Of a stretch of 64,000 nucleotides of DNA, positions 2,072 to 63,050 are shown piece by piece (position 1 is the stretch's first letter; each line of letters starts with the position of its first letter). The notes below the pieces were generated by a model. The model saw only the letters and a list, made by a program, of their open reading frames with translations, was not told the origin of the DNA and searched no databases. The stretch spans positions 3,100,001 to 3,164,000 of the forward strand of contig CDPCPM010000148.1 of assembly GCA_976551045.1 (NCBI GenBank). The letters run 5' to 3'. The DNA comes from Glaucostegus cemiculus (lineage: Eukaryota). The translations under genes were made by a program, and so were the position numbers.

Positions 2072-2141
2072 CTGGGAGCCCAAGGATTACCAGAAAAATG
2101 CGGAAAACGAAATCAATCTCGAGAATCACGGGCTTAGACAT
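2072..2141 (-). CDS. Coding exon 1 of a GPR139-like GPCR (copy 0); exon 2 presumably lies beyond the left window edge
   Basis: Minus strand reads MSKPVILEIDFVFRIFLVILGLP then G|GTAAG. 70 nt and phase 1, as in the other first exons; weak TATA-like CATAAATA about 60 nt upstream. Confidence 0.75.
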
Positions 2142-2560
2142 TATTGATGAGGTTCGAGTGATTTTCCACATATAGTTCCCAGTGTGAATAGCGCCTTATT
2201 TATGGCGGGACGAAACCCCCTTGCGACCTAATTTCATTTGGTGCCAACAAGTTCAACTAATGTAATTAAGCAGCTACAATGACATCACATATTCCCGCAA
2301 CACTGAGTTATTCCACACCGATACGATGCAATTGTGGACCTTGCCTTCAGAGGATTCCATTTATTTCAACAATAACCCTGCCACCTTTCCGTCTTTTCTT
2401 TAATCTCACTGCTTCTTGCAACATCGAGACACTCCATCTGGAACCTACAACTCTCCAGTTTTATCTTCATGTTCATCGCTGTCAAACAGAGGGTTCACCA
2501 GAATGTGGGGACCGTTCCTTCCTGCATAAATCCATGAATATTTGTCAATCAGCGGGGCCC

Positions 2561-3159
2561 TGTAATAGACCTGATAATGTGTATAAAGTAGAAGAAAATT
2601 TGGAGTGTAAAAGATTGCGAGTCCTGAGACGTGAATTAAAGGGCACATTATTAGAGCTGTAATAAAACGGCTTGAAATAGCTGTGCTTCGATCTGAAGTG
2701 CCTTGCTCCAGAGATTTTACTTGCTTCAGGTTTCTTTCTGTAGCATTGAGTTATGATAGTACCAGTTACTGTCTGAAAATATCTGCATGGTTGACTCTTG
2801 CTCCACCACACTGACCTTGAGTATCCTGAATACAAAGATAATAAATGGAGCCCAATGGTTGGAAAAGAAAAGATTAAGGAACTATAGTTTGCTTTAGAAA
2901 ATTAGTAAATATTTCAAGTAAATTCTTTTTTTCTGTAACCAATCACGATGTAGAAAACAGAAGATGCATGATCATTCCTAATTTGGTACTTGTTTGGATC
3001 TCTACAAAGGTATAAGATTTTATGTAGCACAATATATTGCGGAGACCTCCTGAATCGGGACATAGGTGCCTGGTTTGGTGCTTTCCCTTCGGATCAAGTT
3101 ACAAAGAGTTTGCACGAGAACCGTATTCTTTTGAGTTTTCTCTCCAACCGAATTAGACA
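2561..3159 (+). mobile_element. ERV LTR (copy 1)
   Basis: TGTAA...CA termini, CCAAT and TATA-like motifs; colinear with 46591-47193. Confidence 0.8.
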
Positions 3160-4560
3160 ATTGTTGCGATAAGAGTACGAATCAGGGAAATCGGGCCCTG
3201 ATAAGACCCTGTAAAGAGATTGTGAGCGATCGTGGAAAACAGAAGAGGGACGAGGAGATAAAAGTCACCGAAACAGCATCCTGCCTTAGACCGGTTGTTA
3301 AGAGGGGAAATCCCCCACACGAAGGTCAGGATCTGAAGCGGATGCCGGAGTAGAGTGGCAAAATGGGTCAAACTTTAGACAAAGGGGATGGTAAAACACC
3401 CTTGGGGAAATTGTGTAAAAGAAATCCAGATTTAGAAAAGGGTTTTGGCCAACAGTGCACGACTGAACAAGAAATTTGGAGACTACAATTGGCCATTGTG
3501 GGGAACTTTGGATTCAGAAAAATGTCCACGCGCTGAATCAGAGGTTTGAAAAACAAATTGTTCACAAAATTGGAAGGATCTCATTACTAAGTGGAAAGGG
3601 GTGGCAGACAGACACTCATTGATGCAGTTTAAAGTTGTGCACAAGGCCTATATGCCACAAGATAAGCTAGCTCGTTTTTATGATTGTATAAACCCTGTAT
3701 GTGACAGATGCAAATCGAACGTGGCTTCTTTGTCGCATATGTCCTGGTCCTGTCCTTATTTGGAAAAAAATATTGGAAATACATTTTTAATATTGTTTAA
3801 GATTTATTGAAGATCGATTTACAACCTTACACTATTACTGCAATTTTTGGATTACCATTGATAAAGTCTGGCTATTTACCTGCTTCTGCTAACCGTATGA
3901 TTGCTTTTGTTACATTGATGGCCAAACGAGCCATTCTGCTTAAATGAAAGGATCCGATACCCTATACCACCTTTCAATGGTTCTCTCAAACTATATCATG
4001 TCTTAATTTGGAAAAAAAAAATAGGAGTGGTACTGTTGATTCTTCGCTTAAATTTGAAGCTATTTGAATACTATTCAATACTTTCATATGATGCAGTTTC
4101 CCCTTCTATAACTTTTTTTTAAAATTCAGAGAAACGGAGCTGACATCATATTGTTTTATTTCTATTGAAAATTTTGGCCCATTTTTTTTCCCTTGTTTTG
4201 TTTTGTTTTTCTTTAAAAAAAATCATTTTCGGTTTAATTTACTCTATATTATTATGTTTTTTTATTATTGATTTGGGTTTTTTTTTGTTTTTTTTTCTAA
4301 TTACATAACAAATCTTTTTCTTTTCTATCTTTTACATTACACTTATGAATCGAGAGATTGTTGGAACTTTTATATATATATATATCATACTTTATTATTT
4401 TTTTATGATTACCTACGATTGTTACTTGATATTTCTATAATACGTGTAAACATTGTTGTTATCTATCATAACCCGTATTGATTTGTTATTACTAAAAAAG
4501 ATTGAAAAAGAAAGGGGTGGCAGAGAAATTGAATGAGAATTCTAAACAGACCTCTTGGGT
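3160..4560 (+). mobile_element. gag: ERV copy 1 leader and gag (matrix) remnant, interrupted by an L1 insertion
   Basis: ATG at 3363 reads MGQTLDKGDGKTPLGKLCKRNPD and is homologous to 47867 onward. Homology stops at 3608 and resumes at 4510-4555. Confidence 0.8.
3609..4509 (+). mobile_element. 5'-truncated L1-clade LINE (ORF2 C-terminus plus 3' UTR)
   Basis: QFKVVH..CDRC..SLSHMSWSCP Cys-His motif, T-rich 3' UTR and A-rich tail. 15-bp TSD GAAAGGGGTGGCAGA at 3594-3608 and 4510-4524. Confidence 0.88.
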
Positions 4561-7658: not shown

Positions 7659-8569
7659 CTATCCGTGAAGACACTTGTCAGTGAGCATCAGCGGGTATTT
7701 CAGCGCGTACTTCAGCTCCTGTCTGAACATCCTCTGCGTAAGAACATAAATGCAGGTGTTTGTGCAGCGGTTCAGCATTTGAAGCATCCTTGACGTAGAT
7801 ATCATGACATAATCAGTGTTATACATAGAAATAAATGTGATTTCTATTATCTTTGCTATTTGTCTACAGATAAAATACACGACTCCAGGCATCCATAATA
7901 ATATATAACTGATCGATATACTGAAGAGTAAAACGATGGACTTCTTTCGGTTCTCCAGCTCCGGGTCCTTGTCATTCTCTCCGTTGCTTTGGCCCCGAAG
8001 CCCCCCGCAGGCTCTACTGGCAGATAAAATACGGCTGGTCGTCAATACATTGAGGAACACAATTAGAAAGAACGGAACACATGGGATTAAAATGATCTGC
8101 AATGACTCAAATATTCTCCAGGCGGATAAAGTAACGAAGATGAGCTTAACGGCGCATTCCCAAGGAATATTATTGATGACAACTGCAGGTTCAAAAATAA
8201 ACAGCCAAGGTAAGCACCTCAAACAGCAGATGGCACACACGATCACAATAACCACAACCGCAGTTCTCTCCCTGCAATATCTGATTCTCAGCTTCTCGCA
8301 ACAAATCATGATACAACGGTCGAAGGTGAAGGCAACCGTGAGCCAGACGGAAACATCGCTGGTCGCAAACTGCAGGTACGTGGTCAAACTGCACACCGGA
8401 GTAATGTTGAGGAACGATCTTGGGAAATACAACCGGGGAATCGATTCCAGTATCACTTCAAAGATAACGACCAGGAGATCGGCCGCTGCCATTCCCAGCA
8501 GGTAGCGAGTGATACATTTGGAGAGACCGCACTTTCCTCGGGACAGGATCACAATCGCCATCAAGTTAA
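7659..8569 (-). CDS. Exon 2 of GPR139-like class-A GPCR copy A (TM1 end to TM7); spliced product about 326 aa
   Basis: ORF 7659..8699. Acceptor ctcttcatcttccag|TT AAC TTG gives (V)NLMAIVILSRGKCGLSKCITRYL. Contains MAAADL (TM2), PVC (TM3 Cys), TFDRC (DRY-like), WEC (ECL2 Cys), LLWMP (TM6), NTCIY (TM7) and an FRQEL helix 8. The first ~43 aa of the ORF are intronic. Confidence 0.93.
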
Positions 8570-12152: not shown

Positions 12153-12222
12153 CAGGAACTCCGAAGCCCGCAAGGATGGGGTAGAAAGTGCGTTCTATCG
12201 GAGTTATTACCGAGAAAACCAT
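12153..12222 (-). CDS. Coding exon 1 of GPCR copy A
   Basis: MVFSVITPIERTFYPILAGFGVP + G|GTAAG, 70 nt. Joins exon 2 in frame (G|TT = Val); intron 8570..12152. Confidence 0.88.
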
Positions 12223-15724: not shown

Positions 15725-17700
15725 AACACAGATACCTACAGCAGAATTCAGGCCCTTCGGCCCACAAATCTGTGCCGAACATGTCCCTACACTATTAGGC
15801 TTACCATAGCCCCTTCTATTTATTAACCTCCATGTACCTATCTAACAGACTCTTGAAAGAACCTAACGTATCTGACTCCACCACCACTTCCGACAGCCCA
15901 TTCCACGCACTCGCCATTCTCTGAGTAAAAAAAAGCTTACACCTAACATCTCCCCTACATCTTCCCCCCAGCACATTAAACCTATTGTGGCCACAATTTC
16001 AGCCCTGCGGAAAAGCCTCTGACTATCTACCCTATCAATACCTCTCATCATCTTATATACACCTCAATCTGGTCCCCCCTCATCCGCCTTCTCTCCAAGG
16101 AGAAAAGGCCGAGTTCCCGCAACCTGCTCTCTTGAGGTATGCACCACATTCCAAGCAGCATCCACGTAAACCTCCTCTGCACCCTCTCTATAGCTTCGAC
16201 ATCCTTCCTGTAGTGAGGCGACCGGTACTGAACACAATACTCCAGGTGGAGTCTGACCAGGGACCTGTAAAACTGAAGCAATACCTCCCGACCCCTAAAT
16301 TCAATCCCTCTACCAATGAAGGACATTACACCATACGCCTTCTAAACCACGGAGTCAACTTGCGCATCCGCCTTGAGCGTCCTATGGCCGCTTACCCCAA
16401 GATCTCTCTGATCCTCCACACTGTCAAGAGTCTTACCATTAATTCTATATTTCGCCAACCTATTCGACCTACCAAAATGAACCACTTCGTATTTATCTGG
16501 GTTGAAGTGCATCTGCCATTTCTCAGCCAAACACTGCATCCTATCTATGTCCCTCTGTAGCCTCCGACAGCCCTCCGAACTATGCACAACTTCCTCAACC
16601 TTCGTGTCGTCCGCAAACTTACAAACCCACCCTTCCACTTCCTCATCCAGGTCATTTATAAAAATGACAAACTGCAAGGGTCCAAGTACAGATCCCTGAG
16701 TTACACAGGAGGTCGCCGATCTCCACTCAGAATACGACCCTTCAACAACCACTCTTTGCCTTCTGTGGGCCAGCCAATTCTGAATCCACACCGCAAGCCC
16801 CCTGGATCACGAGTCTCCTCACCTTCTCCATAAGACTCGCATGGGGCACCTTATCCAACACCTTGCTAAAATCCATGTACACAGCATCTATAGATCTCCC
16901 TTCATCGATGTTCTTGGTCACTTCTTCAAAAACTTCTATAAGACTCGTAAGACGGGACCTGCCCTTGACAAAGCCATGCTGACTCTTTCTAATCATGCCA
17001 TACCTCTCCAAGTGTTTATAAATCCTGCCTCTCAGCATACTCTCCATCAGCTTACCAACCACCGAGGTAAGACTCACCGGTCTATAATTCCCCAGGCTAT
17101 CCCTATTCCCCTTCTTGAATAACGGCACAACGTCCGTAACCCTCCAATCTACCGGAACCTCTCCCGTCTCAATCGCCGACGCAAAGATCATCGTCAGAGG
17201 CTCCGCAATCTCATCCCTCGCCGCTCACAGCAACCTGGCCGCGGCAACTTACCTAACTTACAACTCTCCAAATGTTTCAGCACCTCCTCCTTTCTCATAT
17301 CCACCTGTTCAATCCGTTCAGGCCGCTGCAAGCCCCCACTACAATCCCCTAGATCCTTCTCCGTAGTGAATACCGAAGTAAAGTATTCATTAAGCACCTC
17401 CGCTATTTATTCGAGTCCATACACACTTCCCCGCTTCCACTCTTGATGTGCCCTATCCTTTCACATCTCATCCTCTTACCCTTCACATACCTGTAGAACG
17501 CCTTGGGGGTTTTCCTTAATCTTATCCGGCAAGGCCATCTCATGTGTCCTTCTGGCTCTCCTAATCTCTTTCTTTTCCTTCCTCCTAGCCTTGTACTCAT
17601 CCAGATCTCTAACATTTCCTAGCTCCTGTACCTTTGGTGCGCCTTTCTTTTCTACTTGACTAGCTTTACTATAGCCTTCGTACACTACGTACTTGTACTT
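15725..17700 (-). mobile_element. CR1 LINE ORF2 (RT) and 3' UTR, 5'-truncated and frameshifted
   Basis: ORFs 16742..17191 (VPLFKKG, NYRPVSLTS, QHGF, DFSK), 16342..16791 (QGSVLGP, FADDTK) and 16048..16326 (RLHLEYCVQ). Confidence 0.93.
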
Positions 17701-17724
17701 GTTCATGTGACAATAAGCGTCGAG

Positions 17725-18048
17725 GACATCATATTGCTCTGTTTCTACTGAGAAATTTTAGCCCAGTCTTTTACTCTTTTTAGATTGTTTCTTTTTTTAG
17801 ACGTTTTCTGTTTAGTTTTGCTTATATTGTTTATAATTTTTCTTATTAATTTGTGACGTTTTTTCTTTTTTCTTTAAATGTATATCATAAATCTTTATTC
17901 TTTCCTATCTTTTATATTATACTGATTATATAAGTTACAGATTTTTCAAATTATATTTTATTGCTCTTTCTGATTACCATGTACAAACTTTAATGCTATA
18001 TATTAATCTGCATTGAATTGAAACTAGTAAAAAGAATGAAAAAGAAAG
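17725..18048 (+). mobile_element. L1 3' UTR-only insertion
   Basis: Homologous to 4142-4509 (gacatcatattg..tttcta.tg..aatttt.gccc). 13-bp TSD AATAAGCGTCGAG at 17712-17724 and 18049-18061. Confidence 0.85.
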
Positions 18049-21014: not shown

Positions 21015-21020
21015 TATAAA
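21015..21020 (+). promoter_or_regulatory. Candidate TATA box of GPCR copy B
   Basis: TATAAA about 75 nt upstream of the ATG. Copy D has TATAAAT (50332-50338, minus) at the same distance. Confidence 0.45.
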
Positions 21021-21094: not shown

Positions 21095-21170
21095 ATGGGA
21101 ATTGGATACAAAATAATCACGAGAATCGAAAGTATTTATTATCCTGTGATTTCAGCCATTGGTATTCCTG
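21095..21170 (+). CDS. Coding exon 1 of GPCR copy B
   Basis: MGIGYKIITRIESIYYPVISAIGIP + G|GTAAG, 76 nt; TATAAA at 21015-21020. Confidence 0.9.
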
Positions 21171-22594: not shown

Positions 22595-23487
22595 TTAACC
22601 TCGAGGCAATTGTGATCCTGTGCCGGGGAAGGTGCGGTCTCTGCAAATGTATCACTCGCTACCTGGTGGCTATGGCGACGATCGACCTCCTGGTCGTTCT
22701 CACTGATCCCTTACTAAGATGGACTGGTAGGATTTATTTCCCGGATTCATTCCTGCGCATCACTCCGGTGTGCAGTCTCACTGTCGTCCTACTTGCCGCG
22801 GCCACCAATGTCTCTGTTTGGTTGACAGTCGCTTTCACCTTTGATCGATTTGTGGCCATTTGCTGCAAGAAGTGGGAAGCAAACTATTGCACCGAGAGAA
22901 CGGCGGCTCTGGTTATAGGGACAGTGAGTGTGCTGAGCTCTCTTGTAGCCGCACCTTGGTACTTTATTTATAAAGAGCAACGTTTCATTAACGGCGTTCC
23001 CTGGGACTGCATACCGACACTGAGCTTCATCACTTCATCAGCCTGGGCCGCATTTGACATGGATGACCGCGTCTTAATGCCTTTCCTTTCCTTCTTCCTG
23101 ATCTTGCTGCTCAGGCGCATTTTGGAATCCAGTCGGGTTCGCAAGGGATTCCGGGTCCGCAGCAATGGAGAGAATGACAAGGATCCGGAGATGGAGAACC
23201 GAAGGAAGTCCATCGTTTTACTCTTCAGTATCACCGGCAGTTTCATTTTGTTGTGGATGACGAAAGTTGTGTTTAACATATATAGGCGGATTGCACAGAA
23301 GAATCTGTACATCACGGATCCGGTTTATATCACGCAACAAACATCATTCATGTTACAGCTTCTCAGTTCCTGCACCAACACTTGTATTTATATCCTGACA
23401 CAGAGCAGATTCAGAGAGGAGCTGAAGAACGCGGTGAAGTACCCAATGAAATTAATTGTTAAATGCGTCAAACCAAGAAACACCTGA
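22595..23487 (+). CDS. Exon 2 of GPR139-like GPCR copy B; spliced product about 322 aa, with a 5-aa in-frame deletion in TM5
   Basis: Acceptor tctctctcttacag|TT AAC CTC. Open frame with ILCRGRCGLCKCITRYL, PVC, TFDRF, WDC, LLWMT, SSCTNTCIY and FREEL. Confidence 0.92.
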
Positions 23488-28335: not shown

Positions 28336-30373
28336 TAAATTGCCATGGAATCTATTCCAAGTTATCGATTTCGTTATGTTCTTTCGGTGAGCGTTACTGC
28401 GAAGTGTGAGAGTACCTTAATGTATCTTCCCCTAAATTGGCGCGTATTGGAATACATTGAATGCTTCCGTGAATGTAGGATTCATTTGCCCTCTGGGAAC
28501 CTCAGGAAAGTCTCAATCGATTTAACACATTTTTGGAAGACATTGTTTATAAAGAAGGGAAGTAGAATCATGTAGTCAAAGGAGGAAGGATTAAAATGCG
28601 TCAGTTCGAATCTACCGTGAGAGCAGATTTTAGGATTTAAAAGAAAAACAAACCTGCGAAGACTGTGGATGCAGTTCGCGACATGAAAACAGAATTTGGT
28701 TGGAAAGCTGTCCGATTTAAACGGGTGGCTAAGGCTCAGACTGTGTAAGAGTAGGTGTTGGAGTCAAACATTGCTCGATGGAAATCACTTACGTGCCGTT
28801 ATGTTCCCAAGAAATTTTGGTTGGGGTTAGTCAGTGATTATCAAATAGTTAAAAAGGCCACAGACGACTATATGATTAGCCGAGCAGAAGTGCATACGCA
28901 GCTTTGGGAATAAACAGAATAAGAACATACAGAGGAAGGTATCGTTCAAATAGAGATGCAAAGAATGCTCGGAATGCTGTGGAGACACTATCTCCATAGT
29001 GTTTAATGTATTTGGTCTCATTTCTCCACTGCTATATTCCCTAGTACTACCTGTACGGCGCTAATCTGTAAGTGATGGCTGGTGAAAGCATGAGATCTCC
29101 CGTATTTCCAGGACTGATCAGTGCTGATAACAGAAAAAGACACTGTTCCTGGCGAGTTTACATCAATGAAAGCCGATAACACAAGGTTGGATAAAACACT
29201 TCCATATAACAGAATACAGAACACATTTTGGATCAATAAGGAATTGTAAGATGAGTGGTCACGTTGAACAAATGAGCCATGATATGGAATGTTAGAGAAT
29301 CAATGAAAAGAAGTCGACCATCAGGGGTAATCACACGGAGAATGAACGTAGCAGTTTCACAGAGAATGTAAACCGTGTGTGCAGTACAAACAAAATTTGT
29401 CATCAATTGATGCCTGCGTTTTGTGTGCACGCAGTTGATAACGTATTTTAAACATGTTGCTGCGTGACACAATAAAGTCATGAAAATTGTTCAAAAAGCA
29501 ATCACGAAGAAGGTCATTAGCATAATGACACGAGAGAAGATTGTTGTATTAACTGGAATGATTTACTCGAAAACAAGATGACACGGCGCAATTAACGATT
29601 AAATACCAGCCTAGGAAATATTTGGAAAAGTAATGCAGGTTGGTCATTTTTTAAAAGTAAGGCCAACATCAAGGCTGGTAGATGCGAAGTGAGTTGGTGA
29701 AATGGACTATTTCAACACTGTGAAGTACTGTTCTCAGTCTGTGAACACATGGCAGCCAGCTGCCAGACAACTGACTGTGCGAAGCATCACTGGCGGTTCT
29801 TAGATTGCTTGATGTTTGATGATGTCATACGATGTACAGGTGAATAGGCAAAACTGCTATTTTAGATGATATCCGCCCGTGGTTGTCACTTCCAGCACTA
29901 AACTAATTTGAAAAACAAGACGGCGGCTTCGCTACCCTTCATATGAATGATGATCCCTCATTTCACCTGCAGCATGGAACTCACTTCATCCTACCTCCAT
30001 GTAATACCATCAAAGTTAACATTGATCAGTTATTGAATGAGATGACGCATACTTATAAAAACTAACGAAGCAATGGGCAAAACATGCTTGTTTAAACGGT
30101 TCAAACTCCATGACACAGATTAGAACATGCATCATTCTCCACTGTAACTCGTTCCAAACAACCTTCCATTAAATTCTTTGTAATATTCCGGGATGAGTTC
30201 AAAAACTTACCGTATGTCACAATGAGTAAAAATAGATCGCACGAAGTGTTTGTTCAGTGGCTTGAGTAAAATCTGCCTGAAGAGGAAACAAATTGGCGAA
30301 ACAGTGTTCCCCAAAACACAGCGTGTGGGCAGTTGAGACTTTTTATCCAAACAATCGCTGCTCCAGGTACAAA

Positions 30374-30443
30374 ATGAAATATCCAGCAATTTTCCACATC
30401 GCTATAATTTACTATCCTTTACTTGCAGCAGTCGGGATCCCCG
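30374..30443 (+). pseudogene. Exon 1 of GPCR pseudogene copy C
   Basis: MKYPAIFHIAIIYYPLLAAVGIP + G|GTAAG, 70 nt. Confidence 0.88.
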
Positions 30444-32475: not shown

Positions 32476-33348
32476 TTAATTTAACGGCGATTGTGATCCT
32501 GTCCCGCGGAAAATGTGGTCCCTCCAAATACATCAGCCCCTACCTGTTGGACATGGCGGCAGCAGATCTGATGGTGGTTGTCGACGCTGTTATAATGATG
32601 CAAATTAATTACATTTATTTGTTTTCTAATTTGTTCATAACTCCGGTGTGTTCTCTGGTACTTGTCCCATGCGTTGCGACCTCAGACTGTTCAGTTTGTT
32701 TCACGGTTGCTTTCACTTTCGATCTCTACATCGCCATCTGCTGGCAGAGGCTGCGAAAACGATATTTCACCAAGAGAACAGCGACTGTGGTGGGTCAGAG
32801 TCAGTGGGTGAAGCCTGCTGTGTCAAAGCTTTTCCAGTTTACTTTGCAATGGATCCAAGGCTGTGCGTCGTTACAACTAAATACTTAACGTCACCCTTGT
32901 GGAGAGCATATCAGTTATGTGACGGTATCCTGACTCCTGTCATACTGATCTGTTTAATGTTGCTGTTTAATTCATGAACTGTCAGTCAATTTTAGAGGCA
33001 AATAAAGTCCGCCGGGGACTCCTGAACAGCAGTGAGGGTCAGAAGGATCTAGAAGTTGAGAACTGGAGGAAGTCAATTATTTTATTATTCGCTATATCAG
33101 CCAATTTTATTTTACTATGGACACACAGTGTTTTACATTTTACGAATTGGCAAGTGGAAAACTATACCTACACAGACAGATACTGCAGCCCGCCGAGATA
33201 TATCCTGCAACAAGTTGGCTTTATGCTGGAGTTTCTCAGTACCTGCACCAATACGTGTCTCTATGGACTGACACAAAGAAAATTTAGGGAGGAGCTGAAC
33301 AAGGGAATGAAATGTCCGTTAAACTTAAATGGGTGGCTCTGCAAATAA
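32476..33348 (+). pseudogene. Exon 2 of GPR139-like GPCR pseudogene copy C
   Basis: Acceptor catttctttcag|TT AAT. Homology is split over ORFs 32493..32888, 32648..32977 and 32974..33348: frameshift near 32790, in-frame TGA at 32975-32977, second frameshift near 32987. DRF is changed to DLY and ECL2 is shortened. Confidence 0.9.
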
Positions 33349-44075: not shown

Positions 44076-44107
<32 letters not shown>

Positions 44108-46240: not shown

Positions 46241-46259
46241 ACCAGTATCTTCTACCTTA

Positions 46260-46590: not shown

Positions 46591-47193
46591 TGAAAATGTG
46601 TATAAAGTACTCGAAAAGTGAGGAGAGTAAAAGATTGTGAGCCCTGAGACGTGAATTAAAGGGTATATCATTATGGCTGTAATACGACTGCTTGAAGTAG
46701 CTGTGCTTCGCTTTGCACTGCCTTGCTTCGGAAATTTTGCTTGCTTCAGCTTGTTTTCTGCAGCCTTAAGGTATGAGAAGCAAGTCTAAGCAAGTCTGCA
46801 TAATTGACTTTTGCTTCACTGAACTGACCATGAGGAACCTGTATACAAAGTTAATCAATGGAGCCAGATGGCCGGAAAAATGATTAAGGAACTCCAGTTT
46901 GCCTTAAAAAAGATAATATTTTAAGTAACAGTATCAATGAATTCCTTTGTCTGTAACCAATCACGATGTAGAAATTAAGTGCCATGCTGCCTGGCTGATG
47001 CATGATCATCCCTAATATGGTACTCGTTTGCACCTCTGAAAAAGTACAACGATGTATGTAGCTCAATGTATTGCGGAGACCACTTGAATCGGGACATATG
47101 TGTCTGGTTTGGTGTTCTCCCATCGGATCAAGTAATAAAGAGTTTGAACGAGAACAGTGGTCTTTTGAGTTTTCTCTCCTACCGAATTAGATA
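46591..47193 (+). mobile_element. ERV 5' LTR (copy 2)
   Basis: Colinear with 2572-3159; AATAAA at 47134-47139; followed closely by a primer-binding site. Confidence 0.85.
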
Positions 47194-47197
47194 ATTT

Positions 47198-47215
47198 TGG
47201 CGAGCCAGCCGAGAG
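47198..47215 (+). other. Retroviral primer-binding site complementary to tRNA-Arg(ACG)
   Basis: TGGCGAGCCAGCCGAGAG versus expected TGGCGAGCCAGCCAGGAG (16/18, recalled tRNA 3' end), 4 nt after the LTR. Confidence 0.85.
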
Positions 47216-47429
47216 TCCAAACAGCACCCAGCCGTGAACCGGTGTAAGTGAAAGAAAGAGAAACTCGTGATTGGAGATGAGACGGGGCCACAGGGCGATT
47301 TGTCCCTGGTCTCCTCTCAGCCGCGATTCTGTAACTCTTCCCCCTTCGATATCCGACTGGAGTGATCTGAAGACTCTAAGAATCCGAGAAGAGAAATCGA
47401 TCGGTAAGCCCTTCTTATTTTAGTATTAT

Positions 47430-47595
47430 TAATTCAGCTTGGCGCAGGCCGGGGTAACCAGGCCCTACCTGCTGCCAACAGTTACTGAATCTGGCTCGTC
47501 GCAGGACGGGGTTAACCAGGCCCTACCTGCTGACAACAGTTACTTAATCCGGCTCGGCTCAAGAAGTGGGTAACCAGGTCCTACCTGCTGACAAA
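47430..47595 (+). repeat. Tandem repeat of about 58 bp (about 2.7 copies) in the ERV leader
   Basis: The core ggg(t)taaccagg(c/t)cctacctgctg(c/a)caa occurs three times. Confidence 0.85.
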
Positions 47596-47866
47596 GGTTT
47601 GAACGATTCGATTAGGCGCTGAGAGACCAAAGCAGACCTCATCGGCCGTTAATTATTGAGATAAGAGAACGAATGGGGGATTTCGGTCCCCGATAAGACC
47701 CGGTAAAGAGTTGAAGGTAAAAGATTGTGAGCGCTCGGCGAAAAGAGAAGTGGGGGAAGAGATAAGAGTCACCGAAACAGCAGCCTGCCTTAGACCGGTT
47801 GTTAAGAGGGGCAATTCCCCACGCGAAGGTTAGCGTCTGAAGTGGATGTCGAAGTAGAGTGACAAG

Positions 47867-48975
47867 ATGGGTCAAACTTCAGACAAAGGGGATGTTGAAG
47901 CACCCTTGCGAAAATTGTGTAAAGGAAATCCAGATCGAGAAAAGGGGTTTCGCCCACTTAGTGCACGATTGAACAAGAAATTGGGGGAATGCAATTGGCC
48001 ACTGGGGGGAACTTGGGATCTAGAGAAATGTACGCGCGCTGAATCAGTGGTTCGGAAAACAATTTGTTCGCAAAACTGTAAGGATCTCATTACTAAATGG
48101 AAAGGGGTGGCAGAGAAATTGACTGAGAAATCTAAACAGTCCTCTGAGGAAGCAAACGCTAAAAGGACATCTCTATTACAGATGACCAGGGTACACCCCG
48201 TCCCTATATAGTCCTTATAGCCTTGTGTGAATTGTATGATAAAAATGGAATTAAAGCAAAGAGTAAACTGGTAAACGAAAGACGCCTTTGGAAATGTCTG
48301 GACTTCAACTACTTTTTGAGAGTGGGGAAGACACCGATATGGAGGAGGTAATTGTCTCCGCCATCCCTTACCCCAGGATGCGGATGTTCACCTATTGTAT
48401 CCCCAACGTCCCACCTTGTCACAATCAGAGGAACAGAGAGCTGAGAAAGATCAACTTGGCAGGGAGAACTTCTTTGACCCCATCGCTTGTTGTACGAGGT
48501 CTCGTAATAATAAGAGAAACCTTCAAACTCCCCTGGGAAGTAACTTTGGAGGGGAAGACTCCCCAGGCTACAAAGCCCAAGACTACCGCAAACCATCATC
48601 AGACCTTGACACCAAACTTCATGCAAGTCCATAGCAAACCCACAGGGAAGGGAGTGCATTTAATCCGCCCTGAGAACGGGGAGAATAGCGACCCTATGGA
48701 TACGGACTCAGATATAGACGATGACCATTCGGAGAGGCATTGGCCAGAACGGTCCCCTGCTCGGCCATACCTAATTGGAAGTGGCACGTTGGAAAAACCT
48801 CGGAAGTCCACGGATAAACTACAACATCCCATACGAAGGGCTCCAAACGAAGGGACAAGATGGTCGGGGTGACACTGTTGGAGTATCTAACCCCTGGAAC
48901 CCCCAGGAGACGTATATGATCATGAATGGGCCCCCCCGACAGGAAAGCAAAACCCGAGGGTTTTATTGAAATGCG
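47867..48975 (+). pseudogene. gag: Degenerate retroviral gag (matrix to start of capsid), class I (gamma/epsilon-like)
   Basis: MGQTSDKG has a myristoylation-type start and WPLGGTWD resembles the gammaretroviral matrix WP..GTF motif. PIRR..PWNPQE resembles a capsid start. Broken by frameshifts; no pol seen. Confidence 0.78.
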
Positions 48976-50187: not shown

Positions 50188-50257
50188 CGGGAATACCAGT
50201 TACCGCAAGTATAGGATAGTAAATGCTGGCTATGTCGTAAATTGCCGGATATCCCAT
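50188..50257 (-). pseudogene. Orphan coding exon 1 of GPCR copy D; no receptor exon 2 recognisable downstream
   Basis: MGYPAIYDIASIYYPILAVTGIP + G|GTAAG, 70 nt, with TATAAAT upstream. I saw no GPCR-like sequence on the minus strand in the gap-free interval 33400-50187. Confidence 0.75.
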
Positions 50258-53920: not shown

Positions 53921-56900
53921 GTTACTGTTTCGACTCGGGGGGCTTCGGAAGGCCTCGGAGGACTTCGGAGAAGTTAAGTCTTTTTCCTTTTATCTTTTTA
54001 TTAAGTCTAGGGTTTAGTTTTTGGTAAGGGAGTAAACTACTAGGATTAGTTTGTATTTATAAGTAATTTTAGTAGGGTTCAAGAAGTTTTAAGGGGTCGA
54101 GTGAGGGCTGGACTGCACAGGCGTGGCGCGGGCAGCTTAAAAGGCAACCATCCTCTAGAGCGGATAGCGGAGTGAGGGGGAAGCAGAGTGGTCAGGCTTT
54201 GGCACAAGGGGCTTTGGCACACAGGGGCTTCGCGAAGAGGAGGCTGGTGAGCCTGAGTACGTGCTGCTGAGATATAAGGTAAGGTCTGGTCGGTACCATT
54301 TATCTTGATTTGTTGCAACTAATCAGGGAGCAGGATATGGGGAGACAGGCAGAGCAGTGATGTGCTCCGTAAGCAGTATGTGGGAGGTCAGGGTCAGCAC
54401 AGTTGACCCTGGTGACCACACCTGCAAAAGGTGCGTCCAGCTGCGGCTCCTAACGTACCGAGTTAGGGAATTGGAGCAGCAGCTGGACGAACTATGCATC
54501 ATTCGGAAGGCGGAGGCAGAGATAGATCAGAGTTTTAGGGAGGTAGTCACACCGATAAGACAGGAGGCGGGTAACTGGTTAACTGTCAGGAGAGGGAAGG
54601 GGAGCAGGCAGAGAGAGCAGAGCACCCCTGTGGCTGTCCCCATCAATAATAGGTATACCGCTTTGGATACTGTTGGTGGGGATGACCTACCAGGAACTAG
54701 TTGCGGAGGTCCGGTCTCTGGCACCGAGACTGGACCCTCAACTCAGAAGAGCAAGAAGGAAGATAGGAGAGCGGTAGTGATAGGGGACTCTATAGTCCGG
54801 CGGAAGAATGGGGAATTCTGTGGGGAAGATCGGGAATTCCGAATGGTCTGTTGCCTCCCTGGTGCCAGGGTCCGGGATATCTCAGATCGGGTTCTGGTTA
54901 TTCTCAGGAGGGAGGGAGTGAACCCAGATGTTGTTATCCATGTGGAGACTAACGACGTGGGCAGGAAAAGAGAGGAGGTCCTGCATAAGGAGTTCAGGGA
55001 GTTAGGTGCTAAGCTGAGGGGCAGGACATCCAGGGTGACAATCTCAGGATTGCTACCTGTGCCACGTGAGAGTGAGGAGAGGAATAGGAAGATTAGGCAG
55101 ATTAATACGTGGCTGAGGGGATGGTGCGAGAGGGAAGGCTTCAGGTTAATGGATAATTGGGATTTGTTCCAGGGAAGGTGGGATCTGTTCCAACGGGATG
55201 GTTTACCCCTGAACTGGAGGGGTATTGACATGCTTACAGGAAGGTTTGCTAGTGCTGCTCGGGGGGGGGGGGGGTTAAACTAAATTTGCAGGGGGAGGGG
55301 ATCCGGAATGAGAGAGAGGATAGCGAGATGGAGGGTAGCGGACAGGTAGAACCAACACAATTTTGGAACATTAATACGAATGGAGAGAGGAGAAATGGGT
55401 TAAAAATCCTATATCTGAATGCACAGAGTTTCAGAAATAAGGTAGGGGAGCTTGAAGCTCAGATGCAAATAAGTAAGTTTGATGTTGTTGGGACAACAGA
55501 GACATGGCTGCAGGGAGATCAGACCTGGAAAATGAATTTTCAAGGGTATACATGCTATCGTAAGGACAGGAAGGTAGGCAGAGGGGGTGGGGTGGCCCTG
55601 TTGGTGAGGAATGAGGTTCAGTCCCTTGAAAGGGTGGATGGACATTGAATCAGGAGAAGTAGATTCAGTGTGGATAGAACTGAGAAACTGTAAGGGCAAA
55701 AAGACCCTAATGGGTGTTACCTACAGGCATCCGAACGGTGGCATGGATATTGTGTGCAAGCTGAATAGTGAGTTAACGTTGGCATGCGGCAAGGGTAATG
55801 TCACGGTAGTTATGGGGGATTTCAATATGCAAGTGGACTGGGAGGATCAGGCTGGTGCTGGGCCCCAGGAAAGGGAGTTTATAGAGTGCCTCCGGGATGC
55901 ATTCTTGGAGCAGCTGGTACGAGAGCCTACCAGGGAGAAGGCTATTCTGGATTTAATGTTGTGTAATGAGCAGGATTTGATAAGGGAACTCAAAGTAAAG
56001 GTGCCATTGGGAGGTAGTGACCATAATATGATGTTTTTATCTGCAAGTGGAGAGGGAAAAGGGCAAATCAGAAGGGACAGTATTGCAGTTGAACAAATGA
56101 AACTATGTAGCCATGAGGGAGGAGCTGGCTAAAGTTGACTGGACTGGAATCCTAGTAGAATTGACGTTGGAACAGCAATGGCAGGTATTTTTGGGACTAA
56201 TGCGCAAGATGCAGGATCAGTTCATTCCCCAGAGAAGAAAAGACTCAAAGAGGGGAAAAGGACCACCCTGGCTGATAAAAGAAGTCAGGGATAGCATAGT
56301 TTTAAAAAGGAAGTGTGGCAGAGCTAAGCTGAGTGGGAAGGCAGAAGATTGGGAATTGTTTAAGTGCAGCAGAATTTAACTAAAAAGGTAATTCAGGAAG
56401 AAAAAAATGAGGTACGAAGGCAAGCTAGCTAGGAATATCAAAGGGGATAGCAAAATCTTTCTTAGGTATGTGAAGGGAAAGAAGCTAGTTAAGAACAATG
56501 TTGGGCTCTTGAAGACTGAATAGGGTGAAATTATTACGGGAAACTGGGAGATGGCAGTCGAATTTAATAAGTACTTTGGATCTGTATTCACTGGGGAAGA
56601 CGTAAGAAATCTCCCAGAGCTACGGATGGACAAAAGGCAGAGGGTGATGGAGGAACTGAAGTGGATTGACATTAGGAAATAAATGGTGATGGGTAGACTA
56701 ATGGGACTGAAGGCTGACAAATCTCCAGGTCCGGATGGTCTGCATCCCAGGGTACTGAAGGAGCTGGCTCGAGAAATTGTGGATGCATTGGTGATCATTT
56801 TCCGATGTTCCCTAGAATCTGGGTCAGTTCCTGAGGATTGGAGAGTGGCCAATGTTATCCCACTTTTTAAGAAAGGAGGGAGGGAGAAAACGGAGAGCTA

Positions 56901-57957
56901 TTGTCCGGTTAGCCGGACGTCTGTGGTGGGGAAGATTAGCATCTTCCATTATTAAGGAAGATTATTAAGGATGAAATAGCGGCATATTTGGATAGCAATG
57001 ATAGGATTGTGTCGAGTCAACATGGATTTACCAAGGGCAAATCTTGCTTGACTAATCTACTGGAGTTTTTTGAGGATGTAACCAGGAAAATAGACGAGGG
57101 AGATTTGGTGGATGTCGTGTACCTCGACTTTCAGAAGGCATTTGATAAGGTGCCGCACAGGAGATTGGAGAGTAAAATGAGGGTTCATGGAATTGCGGGG
57201 AGGGTATTAACTTGGATAGAAAACTGGTTGGCAGATAGGAAACAAAGGGTAGGGGTGAATGGATGTTTCTCAGAGTGGCTGACTGTGACTAGTGGGGTGC
57301 CACAGGGCTCGGTGCTGGGGCCGCAGCTATTTAATATCTATGTTAATAATTTAGATGAAGGCATTGAGAATAACATTAGGAAATTTGCTTCTGGAGTATT
57401 GTGTACTGTTTTGGTCTCCCGGGTTAAGGAAGGATATCCTGGCTATAGAGGGCGTGCAGCGTAGGTTTACGAGGTTAATACCGGGGATGTCAGGACTGTC
57501 TTATGCAGAGAGGTTGGATAGACTGGGATTGTACACACTGGAATTGAGAAGATTGAGAGGGGATCTGATTGAAACATACAAGATTGTTAAGGGATTGGAC
57601 AAGATAGATGACAGGAAATATGTCCCAGATGTTGAGGATGTCTTGAACCAGAGGGCATGATTTAAGAATAAGTGGTAGGCCATTTAGGACAGAGGTGAGG
57701 AAAAACTTCTTCTCTCAGAGGGTTGTTAGTTTGTGGAACGCACTGCTTCAGTGGGCAGTGGAGGCCAATTCTCTGAGCACTTTCAAGAAGGAGCTAGATA
57801 GGTGTCTTATAGATAGGGGAATCAAGGGATATGGGGAAAAGGCAGGAACGGGATATTGAGTGTTGAGGATCAGCCATGATCTCAAAATGGCGGAGCAGAC
57901 TCGAAGGGCCGAATGGTCTACTTCTGCTCCGATAGTCTATTGTATATTGTCTATTGT
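53921..57957 (+). mobile_element. Near full-length CR1 LINE (5' UTR, ORF1, ORF2 with internal RT deletion, TCTATTG-type tail) nested in the older CR1
   Basis: ORF2 motifs [39 protein letters not shown] and PQGSVLGP. Sequence jumps from KFA to LEYCV near 57388. Tail gtctattgtatattgtctattg. Confidence 0.93.
54357..55283 (+). CDS. CR1 ORF1 protein (Zn-finger, coiled coil, SGNH esterase-like domain); probably inactive
   Basis: C..SMW and CKRC, a heptad segment, then VIGDS, CLPGA, HVETND and DGLPLN (catalytic His replaced by Pro). Confidence 0.85.
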   Translation: MMCSVSSMWEVRVSTVDPGDHTCKRCVQLRLLTYRVRELEQQLDELCIIRKAEAEIDQSFREVVTPIRQEAGNWLTVRRGKGSRQREQSTPVAVPINNRYTALDTVGGDDLPGTSCGGPVSGTETGPSTQKSKKEDRRAVVIGDSIVRRKNGEFCGEDREFRMVCCLPGARVRDISDRVLVILRREGVNPDVVIHVETNDVGRKREEVLHKEFRELGAKLRGRTSRVTISGLLPVPRESEERNRKIRQINTWLRGWCEREGFRLMDNWDLFQGRWDLFQRDGLPLNWRGIDMLTGRFASAARGGGGLN

Positions 57958-59590
57958 AAATGGAAAGCCTTCAAAGACGAAATTTTGAGAGTGCAGACTT
58001 CGCATGCTCCTGTCAGGATTAAAGTCAAAGTTAACAATCATAAGGGATCTTGGTTTTCCAGTGATATTGGTGACTGGATATGAAAAAAAAAACAGAGGTG
58101 TATAGCAGGTATAAGCATCCAGGAACGGATGAGGTACTTGAAGAATTCAGGAAATGTAAGGAAATACCAGAAAAGGAAATTAGGAAGGCACAAAGAAGAC
58201 ATGAGGTTGCTTTTGCAGATAATGTGAAGATAAACCCGGAGGGTTTCTACTGTATATATGAAGAGTGAAAGGATAGTAAGGGACAAAATTGGTCACCTAG
58301 AATATCAGAATAGTCGTATATGTGTATAGCCTCAAGAGATGGGGGAGGTTTTAAACACTTTTTTTTGCATCAGTATTTGCTCAGGAAACTGGCATCGTGG
58401 ATATGGAAGGAAGGAAAACAAGGGCCAGTGTCATGGAACAGATAGAGATTAAAAAGGAGGAGGTACTTGATGTTTTACAGGGAATAAAGGCAGATTGATC
58501 CCTCGGGCCTGACAAGATATTTCCTCGGACCCTGAGAAAGAGTAGCGTAGAAATTGCAGGGGCTCTGGAAGATATATTTAAAATGCCCTTAGTCATGGGT
58601 GCGGTGCCGGAGTACTGGAGGAAGCTCATATTGTTCCATTGTTTAAAAAGGCTCGAAGAGTAAACCAGGTAATTACAGGCCGGTGAGCCTGACATCAGTA
58701 GTAGGTAAATTATTGGAAGGTGTTCTGATAGATAGGTAAGTATTTATGCATGTAAATATTTGGACAGCCTAAGGCTGATTAAGAATAGTCAGCATGGCTT
58801 TGTGAGAGGTAGATCGTGTTTAACGAAACTTGTCGAGCTTTTTGAGAGGTCACTAAGAAAGTGGATGAAGGAAAGGCTGTGGATGTCGTCAACATTGACT
58901 TTAGTAAGGCCTTTGACAAGATTCCACATGGGAGATTAGTTGAGAAAGTTCAGTCAATGGGTATCCATGGAAATCTTATAAACTGGATTCGAAATTGGCT
59001 GAGTGGGAAAAGACAGAGAGTGATTGTGGATGGTTGTTTCTCAGATTTGAGGCCTGTGACTCGTGGTCTGCCTCAGGAATCTGTGTTGGGGTCGTTGTTG
59101 TTTGTTGTCAATATCAATGATCTTGATGCTAATCTGGTAAATTGGATTAGTATATTTGAGTTTGACACTAAGATTGAAGGTGTAGTGGACAGCGACTCAG
59201 GCTTTCAAAGCTTGCAGAGGGATCTGAACCAAATGGAAAAATGATCCAGTGAACGGCAGATGGAATTTAATGCGGACAAGTGTGTAATGTTGCATTTTCG
59301 AAGGACAAATTAAGAGCGGACATACACAGTATATCGCAGGGCACGGAGGAGTGCTGAGGAACAAAGGGATCTGGAGTTCAGATACATAATTTTCTGAAAG
59401 GGTAGTCACAGGTAGACTTTTGCCATCCCGGCATTTATAAATCAAAGTACTGAGTATCGGAGTTGGAATGTTATCGTGAGGTTGGTGAGACCAAATTTGG
59501 AAGGTTGTGTGCATTTTCGGTCGCCGAACAACATGAAGAATGTCAGTAAGACTGAAAGAGTGCAGACGAGATTTACCAGAATGTTACCAT
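57958..59590 (+). mobile_element. Older CR1 element, 3' part (RT)
   Basis: Resumes KW.AFKDEILRVQ; NYRPVSLTS, QHGF, DFSKAFDK and PQESVLG. Confidence 0.88.
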
Positions 59591-62500
59591 ATTCGTATTG
59601 CATGCTTAACGATTGGGTTAGTCATATGTTTACTTAATTTGGTAAATGCCAAAGGGAGTGAAGCTCCTAAAATAGAAATAATGAGAATTCAAGTTCTGTT
59701 TGGTACTCAAGGTGTAACTATTTATGGCAGTGAATCACGTCTAAGTCTTATATCCAAAAAAAATGATATCAATTGCCTAGTAATATAATCTAAAATTAGG
59801 CAAGGCCATACCACCATCCTTTCTTTTAGTTTTTGTGAATATTTTTGAGTTAACCTTGGGATTTTGTTCTGGTAAATATATGAAATAATTTTAGAATCAA
59901 CAGTGTCAAAAAAAGATTTCGAGATAACAGTTGGAATCGCTTGAAATACATAGAAAGGTTTTGGGGAACTATTTATTTATTTTAATCGCATTAATTCCGG
60001 CTACCAATGATAAGACAGTGGAGACCACTTACTAAGTAATTATTTAACTTGATCAATTAAAGGCAATAAATTAGCTTTAAAGAAATCCTTATGTTTGTTG
60101 GTAATTTTAACATCTATAAACATATCATAATCAGTTATCAATCTAAAAGGTAACTGCCTATACATTGAGGTTTGCATATTCAGTGGAAAAAGTTTGCTCT
60201 TATTGTGATTTAGTCTATAGCCTTTAGTCTTTATAGCGATTTAGTCTTTAGAAAAAAAAAACCCATATATCACTAAACTGATCTAATAGTGATAGTACTG
60301 CGGGTATAGATTGTTGATGGCGCTCCATGGACTAAGTCACAATTTGGCTTTGGCCCAGGCACATTTCAATCTACGATTTACTACCATTTAAATGGGGTGG
60401 AGAGTGGGGATAGTGGTGTTTGTGGGAGAGTGGTTTCTGTGGTAGAAGAGTGGAGGGACCTCTGGAGTGAATTCCCGTCGCTGTTCAATATTCACGATCA
60501 CCAGCGTAGTGTGGGTTGATACAAGCCATCAGCTCTACCAAAGCGCTGCATGCCCGACATGTTAACAACTCTGTACGTAATGTATCTCGTGTGTCTCTAC
60601 CGGTGATCACAAAGCACAGAAATCGCAACAAAGCAAAATGGAGCTGAATTACATCATTCGGCCCTTCCAGCCCGCTCCGCCATTTAATACTAAAATGGCT
60701 GATAATCTATGTTCTCTCCTATTTACCCAGTCGCTCACATACCCTCGATGCTTCTTTTGCCGATAAATCTATCTGTCCTATTCTGAGCATACTTGTTGGT
60801 CTGGAGGAGTGATTGAGAAGATGGGGCAGTGTCATCCCGCGGCACACACACAGCTGAACTCTTGTATTGTCAGCTAATTGCTGGACAGGTTTGTACAGTG
60901 GAATTGAACATCTTTTCTTTCCGTTTGAAATATGCAGGCAGCTGAGGATAGAGCAAATATCGTGGCGACACTTGCCGTCTGCCCCGAGAATCACGACGCA
61001 AAAAATGTATTTCACTGTGTGTTTCGATGTATATGTGACTAATAAAGATCTTATCTTAGGTTGAAGGTCTGCGTTAAAGACATGGATAAAGAGAATATAA
61101 TTATGCTGTCAAAATATGAAGCTTTAAAATGTCATCTTACAGATCTCGCGAGAGGTGGGCTTTAGTTGTGGAAAGACAAGTCTGTGAAAATGTGGATTTA
61201 TTTGCTGAACCGGAAGCAGAGATCGACTGTAAAGTTCTCCGAATAAAGGTACAACTGAGGCACGGAATGTCTCACAGTCGTTTCTTGGTTAAGCATTACC
61301 AGCTGGAAATCGTTGGAGTTTTATTCAATTGCCAAGAGCGGCAGGGTTCAGTGTTGTCCAAATAAGGATAGAGACAAAGCCTGGCATTAAAAATGACCGG
61401 GAGGAAATCCACACACAACGTTCAGAGTAAAGAGTAAATGTTCTTTCACTGTGGTTAAAGTAGATACAAGGGAAGTTATCGTTCAAACAGAGAAGCAGAG
61501 AACATCCGGAACACTGACGAAACACAATCTCCAGAGTGTTTGATGTATTTGTTCTAATTTCTACATGTCCTTATACTCCAGTGTTACTTATCCTAACCTA
61601 ATCCGTAAAATACGTCCGGGGAAAGCGTGATGCAATGTTGATATCTCCAGTTTGTCCTGGACTGATTTCAGGATCATTACCGACTCACCAGTGAGCGTTA
61701 AAACGGTGCCCGAAGAGCCCACGGAAGTGCTAAAGCAGGCCGATAAAAATACAGGCATGAAGTGTGTTTTAATACAATATGAATACAAAATACTTCCTGC
61801 TTTATCAATGAATTGAAAATCAGAGGAACATATTTGGACGATTAGGTTGAAATGTGGCGCGTCAGAGACTCGGCGAGAAGAGGTCGACAATTAGAGACAG
61901 TCAAATTGTGGATGAATTAAGCAGTTTCATGGAGAGTGTAGACGAGGTGCGCAGTGCGAGCAAAATTCATTATCAATTGATGCTTGTGTTTTATATGCCT
62001 GAGATTGACAATATTTTAAATATTTTGGCTCGGTATCACCATAAAGACATGGCAAATGACAAACGAGCAAACAAAGGAGCAAATAAATGTTCACTGTGTG
62101 TTCAGAGAAACTCATTTACATGTGGATACTAGAGAAGTTTGATTTTTTTTTACTGGAAAGTTGTGCTTGGACAGGAAATGAAGGGTGAGAATTATCTATA
62201 GAATCTGAACCTATGAAATATTTACAGAAGTATGGGGATATATTTTTATTTATTTATCTAAGAACGACATCAGCCCTCATGTGTTAGGTGTGAGTTGGTC
62301 AAATTTGTTCTTTCTTTACTGGAAAATGCTGTCCTCAGTCTGTGTATATATTGTACCCAGTTGCGTGGCAACTCGATGTCTGAATGCACTACCTCAGGCT
62401 GTTCTCGGATCTGTTTGGACTTGTTGATGTCATGAGACACACGGGGATACAGTTACCCTCTGTTATTTCATATCTCAGCAACCCGGGGTTTTCGATTTTA

Positions 62501-62980
62501 GCACTAAACCCACCTGAATGACAAGACGTTGGCTAAGATATCCCCCTCCCCTCAAGAAGGCTTATCCCTCGTTTTACCTGTGACAGTAAACGCACTTCAT
62601 TCTGCCAGTAAGTGATACCACCAATGTTATCATTGTTTGCTGATTGGCGGAGATTGCGTTTGGTGTAAAAAAGGAAGATTGGTTCACACTTCGAGACACA
62701 CAATAGAATATGCAGCTCAATCCAATGAAGTTCTTTCCAAACAACATGAAATTAAATTGTCTGTAACATCCTTCGAAGGGTTCAATATATTACGCAATGT
62801 CACAATGAGTTAAAATAGATTACATTATTTTTTTTTTTGTTTCGGTGGCTCTGGATAATCTGACCCAGGAGTACACAAATCGGCTTCTCGGGCATTCGGC
62901 CTCGTGCATAAGAGCCCCTTGAAACAGAGCGTATGTGCATTTGGGACGTTATGTACAACTGATTGCTGCTTCAAGTGGAA

Positions 62981-63050
62981 ATGGGATATCCAGCAATATT
63001 TCAAATCGCCAGAATTTACTACCCTGTACTTGCAGCGGCTGGTATTCCTG
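62981..63050 (+). CDS. Coding exon 1 of GPCR copy E; exon 2 presumably beyond the right window edge
   Basis: MGYPAIFQIARIYYPVLAAAGIP + G|GTAAG, 70 nt. Flanks and intron start are paralogous to those of copy C. Confidence 0.88.

Follow-up and report, generated by a model that had tools for sequence, protein, structure and literature searches.

What kind of receptors do the GPR139-like genes packed into 64 kb of the genome of the ray Glaucostegus cemiculus encode, and are they GPR139 at all? The stretch in question (GenBank assembly GCA_976551045.1, contig CDPCPM010000148.1, positions 3,100,001 to 3,164,000 of the forward strand; 64,000 nucleotides, called the window below) carries six paralogous loci for receptors that couple to G proteins (GPCRs), in which a sequence-only reading had seen a birth-and-death cluster, perhaps from an undescribed chemosensory or immune-sensing repertoire. 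We report here that these loci belong to a real, undescribed giant receptor family. Its two-exon genes, copy number, turnover by duplication, conserved framework, selection on the loops, loss of the GPR139 pocket and compact shared promoter were shown; as to its role, we give roughly even chances that it serves chemosensation, each member using its hypervariable outer loops to recognise its own peptide or protein cue in the water.

Copy number and turnover of the family

The genes of the family consist of a short coding exon that ends in the middle of transmembrane helix 1 (TM1), a phase-1 intron and a single long exon. A protein search of the 2.85-Gb assembly, in which 130 of 19,466 candidates were scored, gave E values below 1e-99 for all of them. 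Exact degenerate motifs matched 7,166 times for a wide version of TM3 (one match in the control) and 6,668 times for TM7 (14 in the control), which means that the genome holds thousands of copies rather than a handful; the former number is a firm floor for family loci in the assembly. A narrow TM3 motif gave 3,999 matches (control, 2), a count that was superseded because, in the unselected 264-kb stretch surrounding the window, the motif caught only 2 of 16 loci, while a CTNTCIY motif and an exon-1 donor motif matched 1,332 and 990 times (controls, 2 and 0). In the first 4.66 Mb of contig C1, a TM3 match was present at 58 of 92 TM7 matches; if C1 represents the rest of the genome, the union of the two is about 9,600, and recapture puts the total at an estimated 11,300 loci or so. 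The listed matches spread over at least 125 contigs.

Of 40 loci drawn at even spacing from the narrow-TM3 list, 13 had an open second exon; it was also open in 12 of 38 from the CTNTCIY list (40 taken, one of them a chance match), in 15 of 30 consecutive TM7 matches (L254, which is frameshifted, being counted as broken) and in 3 of the 16 second exons in the 264 kb around the window. When TM7-positive loci were pooled and four duplicates removed, the second exon was open in 37 of 87, and an open exon 1 was found for 26 of the 28 open second exons checked. From these samples, the assembly is estimated to contain about 2,600 (2,000-3,300) complete reading frames. Many are near-copies of each other: in one subfamily, 23 of 30 loci have a twin of at least 99% identity, on two to six contigs, and the 30 collapse to 14. 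If all subfamilies collapse as that one does, about 1,200 (900-1,550) distinct open genes are left. The 89 distinct open sequences at hand range over 33-99% identity.

Contig C1 contains repeated blocks, with 8-kb stretches that are 95-99.7% identical, and motif positions between 0.8 and 4.4 Mb (G000:C1:0.8-4.4 Mb) recur at offsets near 0.74, 1.89 and 2.63 Mb. These offsets suggest segmental duplications that are large and recent, or else repeats in the assembly. There is no overall doubling of the assembly, since GPR139, its two low-copy kin described below and a V2R-like cluster on contig C243 occur once each. The birth-and-death expansion that had been proposed from the window is supported, and it proceeded by tandem and segmental duplication.

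The class C seven-helix exons of the assembly, V2R-type and other, number 50 (from 72 candidates scored). About 27 of them form the single cluster on C243 (G000:C243:4815979-6018856), which is probably the repertoire of V2R/OlfC receptors. On contig C73, 120 kb separate another class C exon from GPR139, a neighbourhood like that of GPRC5B in human.

Receptor class and predicted structure

The family consists of class A (rhodopsin-like) GPCRs, as seen from its profile matches, helices and core switches. Both open second exons of the window, those of loci A and B listed below, match the Pfam profile 7tm_1 above cut-off (E 1e-17 and 1e-18), so that their resemblance to receptors is no accident. 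Gene B additionally has a weak match to srw (PF10324; E 4e-5), and the profiles of OR, TAAR, V1R/ORA, V2R/OlfC and T2R gave no match. The class A switches are nearly invariant among the 89 distinct open members: D2.50 in 87, R3.50 in 89, N7.49 in 89 and Y7.53 in 88. C3.25 is kept in 77 of the 89, and a cysteine in the second extracellular loop (ECL2) is present in most. The most divergent subfamily, S3 (L164-L192), lacks both C3.25 and the ECL2 cysteine and so has lost the usual disulfide.

A predicted model of exon 2 of locus A (predicted local distance difference test score, 89) contains helix 8, six complete transmembrane helices and a portion of TM1, together with a predicted beta-hairpin in ECL2. 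Its best fold matches are opioid, cholecystokinin, somatostatin, neurotensin and chemokine receptors, which at 15-22% identity are generic matches.

The DRC or DRF and NTCIY motifs described for the window are present. NTCIY does stand where NPxxY is expected, yet it is one variant of NTxxY, and the loss of the proline is shared with GPR139 (NFFLY). The very short N-termini hold for the usual exon 1 of about 23 codons and not for subfamily S1 (L053-L092, L133-L162), in which exon 1 has 60 codons and encodes a variable, aromatic-rich N-terminal extension.

Relationship to GPR139

Relatives of the family fill 1,881 clusters at 90% identity. Among the clusters listed, the 120 named ones all come from sharks and rays and mostly bear the name "probable G-protein coupled receptor 139"; the named clusters of the divergent subfamily are likewise from sharks and rays, with sawfish proteins as best matches (83-87%). 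The RefSeq model of a skate member (P0528) lacks the family exon 1 and has unrelated ends, which suggests that public models of the family are unreliable. The name does not fit: a true GPR139 orthologue, recognised by the TM3-motif pattern of GPR139, was found once in the genome, on C73. With its best GPR139 matches in birds, mammals and coelacanth it shares 85-89% identity, whereas the family shares 20-23% identity (22%) with GPR139.

Closer kin came to light when a GPR139 search of cluster representatives was rescored with the family profile. They are coelacanth XP_005988539.1 (X; 32% identity to the family, 184 bits), bichir XP_028654722.2 and lamprey CAN0355119.1 (Y), amphioxus CAH1273669.1, and one further entry. 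The ray keeps a single orthologue of coelacanth X (61%; G000:C233:9996617-9999610, L259 and L223) and a single one of bichir Y (G000:C46:20060578-20061465, L224), so that X and Y appear to be overlooked vertebrate orphan GPCRs, conserved and apparently single-copy in the ray, paralogous to GPR139 and GPR142. The family, X, Y and GPR139 all have a phase-1 acceptor before the TM1 asparagine.

A mixture-model tree of 38 proteins, from which 11 long-branched or redundant rows of the preceding tree were excluded, unites the family in one clade (100/100) and places GPR139 and GPR142 in a separate one (100/99). The sequence-only reading was therefore right that the genes are not GPR139 itself, but GPR139 and GPR142 are displaced as its nearest relatives in the best tree, where the family is sister to the coelacanth-type genes (90/90), then joins the genes of bichir and lamprey (100/98) and next that of amphioxus (98/90). 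The preceding tree, with 11 more rows, gave the same order with supports of 91/79 and 98/92, and a FastTree analysis without the coelacanth protein left the sister of the family unresolved. This sister position is less firm than the separation of the clades: the stem of the family is long, and a clade of the family with GPR139 and GPR142 was not rejected by the approximately unbiased (AU) test (p=0.065). Against invertebrate FMRFamide-type receptors, the family groups with GPR139 and GPR142 on a 100/97 branch. Ray members interleave with shark sequences in the trees, and the expansion therefore predates the shark-ray split; ray-specific bursts followed later.

The agonist pocket of GPR139 is formed by E3.32, F3.33, H5.43, W6.48, R6.51 and N7.38, according to the structural report (PMC8807744). 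Among the 89 members, neither R6.51, E3.32 nor N7.38 is one of the six commonest residues at its position, while H5.43 is kept in 32, F or Y3.33 in 57 and W6.48 in 87.

Selection on the outer loops

Per-site dN/dS (omega, the ratio of nonsynonymous to synonymous rates) was estimated on 78 open exons, non-redundant at 99%, out of 126; these are largely top search matches and hence biased to intact copies. Our own codon-model code reproduced the IQ-TREE likelihood; branch lengths in the site tests were fixed up to a scale, sites were assigned by naive Bayes, and gene conversion was taken into account only in part. Overall omega was 0.46, with 0.39 in the helices, 0.38 in the inner loops and helix 8, and 0.83 in the outer loops. 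Selection is thus not uniformly purifying: positively selected outer loops sit on a framework with omega of about 0.4. For five subfamilies, twice the log-likelihood difference (2dL) between models M8 and M8a was 291, 35, 12, 9 and 1.7; all members taken together gave 90.

In S1, the test on gap-free columns still gave a 2dL of 265, with omega 4.0 for 10% of sites. The loops, which make up 41 of the 268 columns, contain 19 of the 24 selected sites. The selected columns carry up to 12 different residues. S1 is an almost fixed framework bearing three hypervariable loops, and the divergence on the ligand side proposed earlier takes the form of outer-loop sites selected at omega 3-4. The contrast between conserved inner and divergent outer loops can already be seen between genes A and B, which are identical at 26 of 41 intracellular-loop positions and at 19 of 46 extracellular-loop positions.

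One caveat is that synonymous divergence is also higher in the loops, where pairwise dS is 0.41 vs 0.20 and pairwise dN/dS is 0.94. Differences at four-fold sites amount to 0.26 in the loops, 0.18 in the framework and 0.24 in introns, which suggests that the framework is homogenised or constrained. Positive selection persists when the loops are given their own rate or their own tree (2dL 74 and 56; omega 2.7-3.3). On terminal branches, framework omega is 0.36 for open copies and 0.48 for broken ones, a difference that is not significant (2dL 2.8).

Loci of the window and their promoters

Translated searches and direct reading located all six loci between 2072 and 63050, in the order -,-,+,+,-,+ that had been given for them. 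Their features are as follows.

2072..2171, minus strand: exon 1 of locus 1, N-terminus and first half of TM1, with a phase-1 GT donor
G000:C148:3097904-3098821, outside (left of) the window: exon 2 of locus 1, in-frame TGA after 198 codons, pseudogene
7659..8569, minus strand: exon 2 of locus A, open, from the second half of TM1 to the C-terminus, with DRC and NTCIY
12153..12222, minus strand: exon 1 of locus A, 23 codons and 1 base; intron of 3,583 nt
21015..21019, plus strand: TATA-like box of locus B, with the ATG some 80 nt downstream
21095..21170, plus strand: exon 1 of locus B; intron of 1,424 nt
22595..23487, plus strand: exon 2 of locus B, open, with DRF and NTCIY
30247..30253, plus strand: forkhead-like TGTTTGT upstream of locus C, common to several subfamilies
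30374..30443, plus strand: exon 1 of locus C; intron of 2,032 nt
32476..33348, plus strand: exon 2 of locus C, frameshifted across three frames, first stop after 136 codons, pseudogene
50188..50257, minus strand: exon 1 of locus E, orphan exon, donor intact, TATA upstream
62981..63050, plus strand: exon 1 of locus F; exon 2 from window position 65369 (outside), frameshifted, pseudogene

The earlier tally of two complete loci, one pseudogene and one orphan exon stands, and the two loci cut by the window edges, whose state was read from the neighbouring stretches of the assembly, turn out to be broken. The window therefore holds two open loci (A and B), three broken ones (1, C and F) and the orphan exon of locus E, for which a search for exon 2 found none. 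The open loci encode proteins of 326 amino acids (A) and 322 amino acids (B), the latter having serine in place of P5.50 and lacking a few residues, through an in-frame deletion, where TM5 ends. Donors are weak (GTACGG, GTATCT) in some otherwise open genes of the family (L119; one at window position 80864, outside the window; L065), and a few genes counted as complete may not splice.

Loci C and F share 65% DNA identity over 1.8 kb around exon 1 (29291-31057 vs 61861-63681). Promoter and first exon of these two loci appear to have been duplicated as one unit. Decayed remnants of retrotransposons of the long interspersed nuclear element (LINE) type lie between the genes at 16051-17757, 43477-46536, 56101-59634 and 3550-3807, with reverse-transcriptase matches at 16345-16806 and 58846-59241 and a weak zf-RVT match at 3550-3807. 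A repeat pair at 2572-3608 and 46591-48114 (77-83% identity) is probably an interspersed element.

In most subfamilies the ATG is preceded, at a distance of 74-115 nt, by a TATA-like box, and a 5' non-coding exon, considered as a candidate, was dropped for them on that ground. The forkhead-like motif TGTTTGT occurs in 18 of 34 promoters, or 9 of the 19 deeper groups; windows further upstream contain it 1-4 times and shuffled sequences 1.8 times. It was noticed before it was counted, the promoters are homologous, and the factor names used here are labels for consensus sequences. Three of four promoters added afterwards also carry it, that of the deepest subfamily included. Neither a TATA nor a forkhead-like motif was found in the 330 nt upstream of gene A. 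In the S1 promoter, a TATA-like box and an initiator-like motif are accompanied by a homeodomain-like TAATTA and by a palindrome that resembles a kappa-B site.

Expression material

Contigs from RNA runs at locus A (four runs with small shares) contain only pieces of exon 2 of paralogues, with neither exon 1 nor a splice joint, and exon 1 is likewise absent from five unnamed short-contig proteins and three cluster mates, so that no splicing is shown by them. These contigs and proteins are evidence neither for nor against expression. In the searched parts of the supplements of PMC10529500, PMC11372145, PMC11057056, PMC13188829 and PMC10115646, no entry for the family was found, and the supplement of PMC13200729 lists the true GPR139 orthologue only.

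Possible functions of the family

The scheme that we consider most plausible is a chemosensory one, and its steps would be as follows. The family, which was amplified before the shark-ray split and shaped by birth and death through tandem and segmental duplication, probably goes back to a side branch of the GPR139/142 group made up of chordate genes that are unnamed and low in copy number. The TATA/forkhead-like promoter would drive transcription in sparse cells of an exposed sensory epithelium, such as nose, taste buds or skin, where the receptors would bind peptide-sized ligands that differ between members and would signal to G proteins via the conserved D2.50, DR, W6.48 and N7.49/Y7.53 switches. 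Peptide-sized ligands are suggested by the ECL2 hairpin, the fold matches to peptide and chemokine receptors and the kinship with MIP, FMRFamide and proctolin receptors, which are peptide receptors in invertebrates according to PMC8514136. Chemosensation is favored because of the size of the family, the form of its genes, its pseudogene load and the small number of known cartilaginous-fish olfactory receptors, about 10-50 despite large noses (PMC10116579); this genome has 50 class C exons in all. The narrower proposal, which we put forward tentatively, is that the family is a fifth, overlooked olfactory family of sharks and rays, derived from a peptide-receptor branch and with more than 1,000 distinct working members in this ray.

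Several observations weigh against a chemosensory role. Selection acts on the loops and not on the deep helical pocket, and loop-placed omega values of 3-4 are nearer to those of host-pathogen receptors than to those of odorant receptors. Its strength also varies, from high in S1 through moderate in S2-S4 to a level in S5 that does not reach significance (2dL 1.7). O/E (Ebf) sites, which typify odorant-receptor promoters, are found in 0 of 34 promoters, the chance expectation itself being low (0.2). The numbers of loci and open genes are estimates because only a few of the 125 contigs were sampled. No evidence of expression was found in the RNA runs and supplements searched. Finally, V2R/OlfC genes already supply the sparse pattern of expression in the catshark nose, as described in PMC10116579.

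The strongest rival, to which we assign perhaps half the weight given to chemosensation, is a germline-encoded immune or barrier sentinel repertoire, in which leukocytes or epithelial sentinel cells detect peptides of microbes and parasites and an arms race drives the loops. The omega values of 3-4, the selected columns with up to 12 different residues each within a framework that hardly varies, the loop divergence at the level of introns with a more homogeneous framework, the chemokine and peptide receptors among the best fold matches, the absence of O/E sites and the kappa-B-like palindrome in S1 promoters all agree with such a role. However, kB, IRF, ETS and RUNX sites are not enriched across subfamilies (kB 3/34, IRF 0/34), and the immune single-cell marker table of the bamboo shark, which gives NCBI descriptions (PMC11372145), has, in its available part, at least 46 "coupled receptor" entries and no "receptor 139", although sparse or multi-mapping genes would not appear as markers.

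It is rather improbable that the size of the family is mainly a by-product of segmental duplication in unstable regions, with partly uncollapsed haplotypes and a small working core. The twins of the subfamily that shrinks from 30 to 14 loci, the repeated blocks within C1 and the 3 open loci of 16 in the unselected stretch can be read in this way, and at a divergence of 3-6% chance alone would leave 17-40% of frames open. This explanation must contend with the framework omega of 0.36 on the open copies' own terminal branches, with the diversity of the 89 open sequences, with the single occurrences that speak against an overall doubling of the assembly and with the many family clusters in other sharks and rays.

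Still less probable is a reproductive role, as sperm, egg or reproductive-tract receptors for fast-evolving gamete or seminal peptides. Strong positive selection on exposed loops fits reproductive proteins, and sex-peptide/MIP receptors belong to the same wider group, but thousands of loci exceed the known gamete-recognition systems. That the family comprises amplified GPR139-like neuromodulatory receptors for aromatic amino acids is very unlikely, since a single true GPR139 lies elsewhere in the genome at 22% identity and R6.51, E3.32 and N7.38 are lost, even though GPR139 is the best solved-structure match by sequence (E 3.5e-9), the phase-1 TM1 intron is shared, W6.48 and an aromatic 3.33 are mostly kept and a sister position to GPR139/142 is not rejected.

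Significance

No description of the family was found in the accessible part of the literature; subscription papers, another family name or supplements outside that part could hide one. The available portions of the texts on the zebra shark genome, catshark sensory systems and the Greenland shark, and of a chemoreceptor review, do not mention it. Within these bounds the family is undescribed, as had been supposed, and thousands of loci with a diversified ligand face are filed under the name of a single-copy gene. The larger count, the coelacanth-type sister genes, the selection on the loops and the promoter motif are new. The paradox of few receptors and large noses in cartilaginous fishes becomes testable with existing catshark or skate tissue. 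If the chemosensory reading is correct and the family is olfactory, it would be among the largest vertebrate receptor repertoires, would perceive peptide cues via antibody-like hypervariable loops and would mean that sharks and rays do not, as now held, smell with 10-50 receptors; if it is immune, it would represent diverse germline-encoded GPCR recognition beside the oldest adaptive immune system. At 11,000 loci with one per 16-35 kb, the family may fill 7-14% of the assembly, a share that bears on the assembly, masking and annotation of elasmobranch genomes.

Comparison with known systems

The family carries the NCBI automatic name GPR139 and shares with GPR139 and GPR142 the wider group, the position of the phase-1 intron in TM1, the lack of a proline at 7.50 and W6.48. 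These two vertebrate orphan receptors for L-Trp/L-Phe are, in contrast, single-copy, conserved and separate in this genome, whereas the family has thousands of copies, loop-focused positive selection and no R6.51/E3.32/N7.38 pocket. Most members also possess C3.25 and the ECL2 cysteine, and the ray GPR139 lacks C3.25. The X, Y and amphioxus relatives are closer in the best tree and have a short N-terminus, the same intron and the motifs YPLL..IGIP, RKSI.LL and TQ.KFR.EL. X and Y are conserved, present as one copy each in this genome, and retain R6.51 and ERF or ERY, while the family is long-branched and amplified.

Among large receptor systems, nematode srw (PF10324) has a separate origin, and the profile match to it is marginal; we take srw to be an independent expansion from the same FMRFamide/MIP/GPR139 receptor group. 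Rodent MRGPR and formyl-peptide receptors are lineage-specific class A clusters that act in sensory neurons and leukocytes, respond to peptides and have positively selected outer loops; they resemble the family in these respects but belong to a different class A branch and number tens, not thousands. Vertebrate chemoreceptor families typically have small genes with short N-termini that lie in clusters and are mostly pseudogenes, a pattern that this family resembles; it is like OR, TAAR, V1R/ORA, V2R/OlfC and T2R in its clustered compact genes, birth-and-death evolution, many pseudogenes and variable outer but conserved inner face. It differs from them in sequence membership, in lacking O/E sites and in its peptide-receptor ancestry with an ECL2 hairpin. 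As a large clustered family with birth-and-death evolution and a diversified ligand face, it has the makings of a repertoire, and if its putative sensory role holds, it would be a chemoreceptor system larger than any known from cartilaginous fishes.

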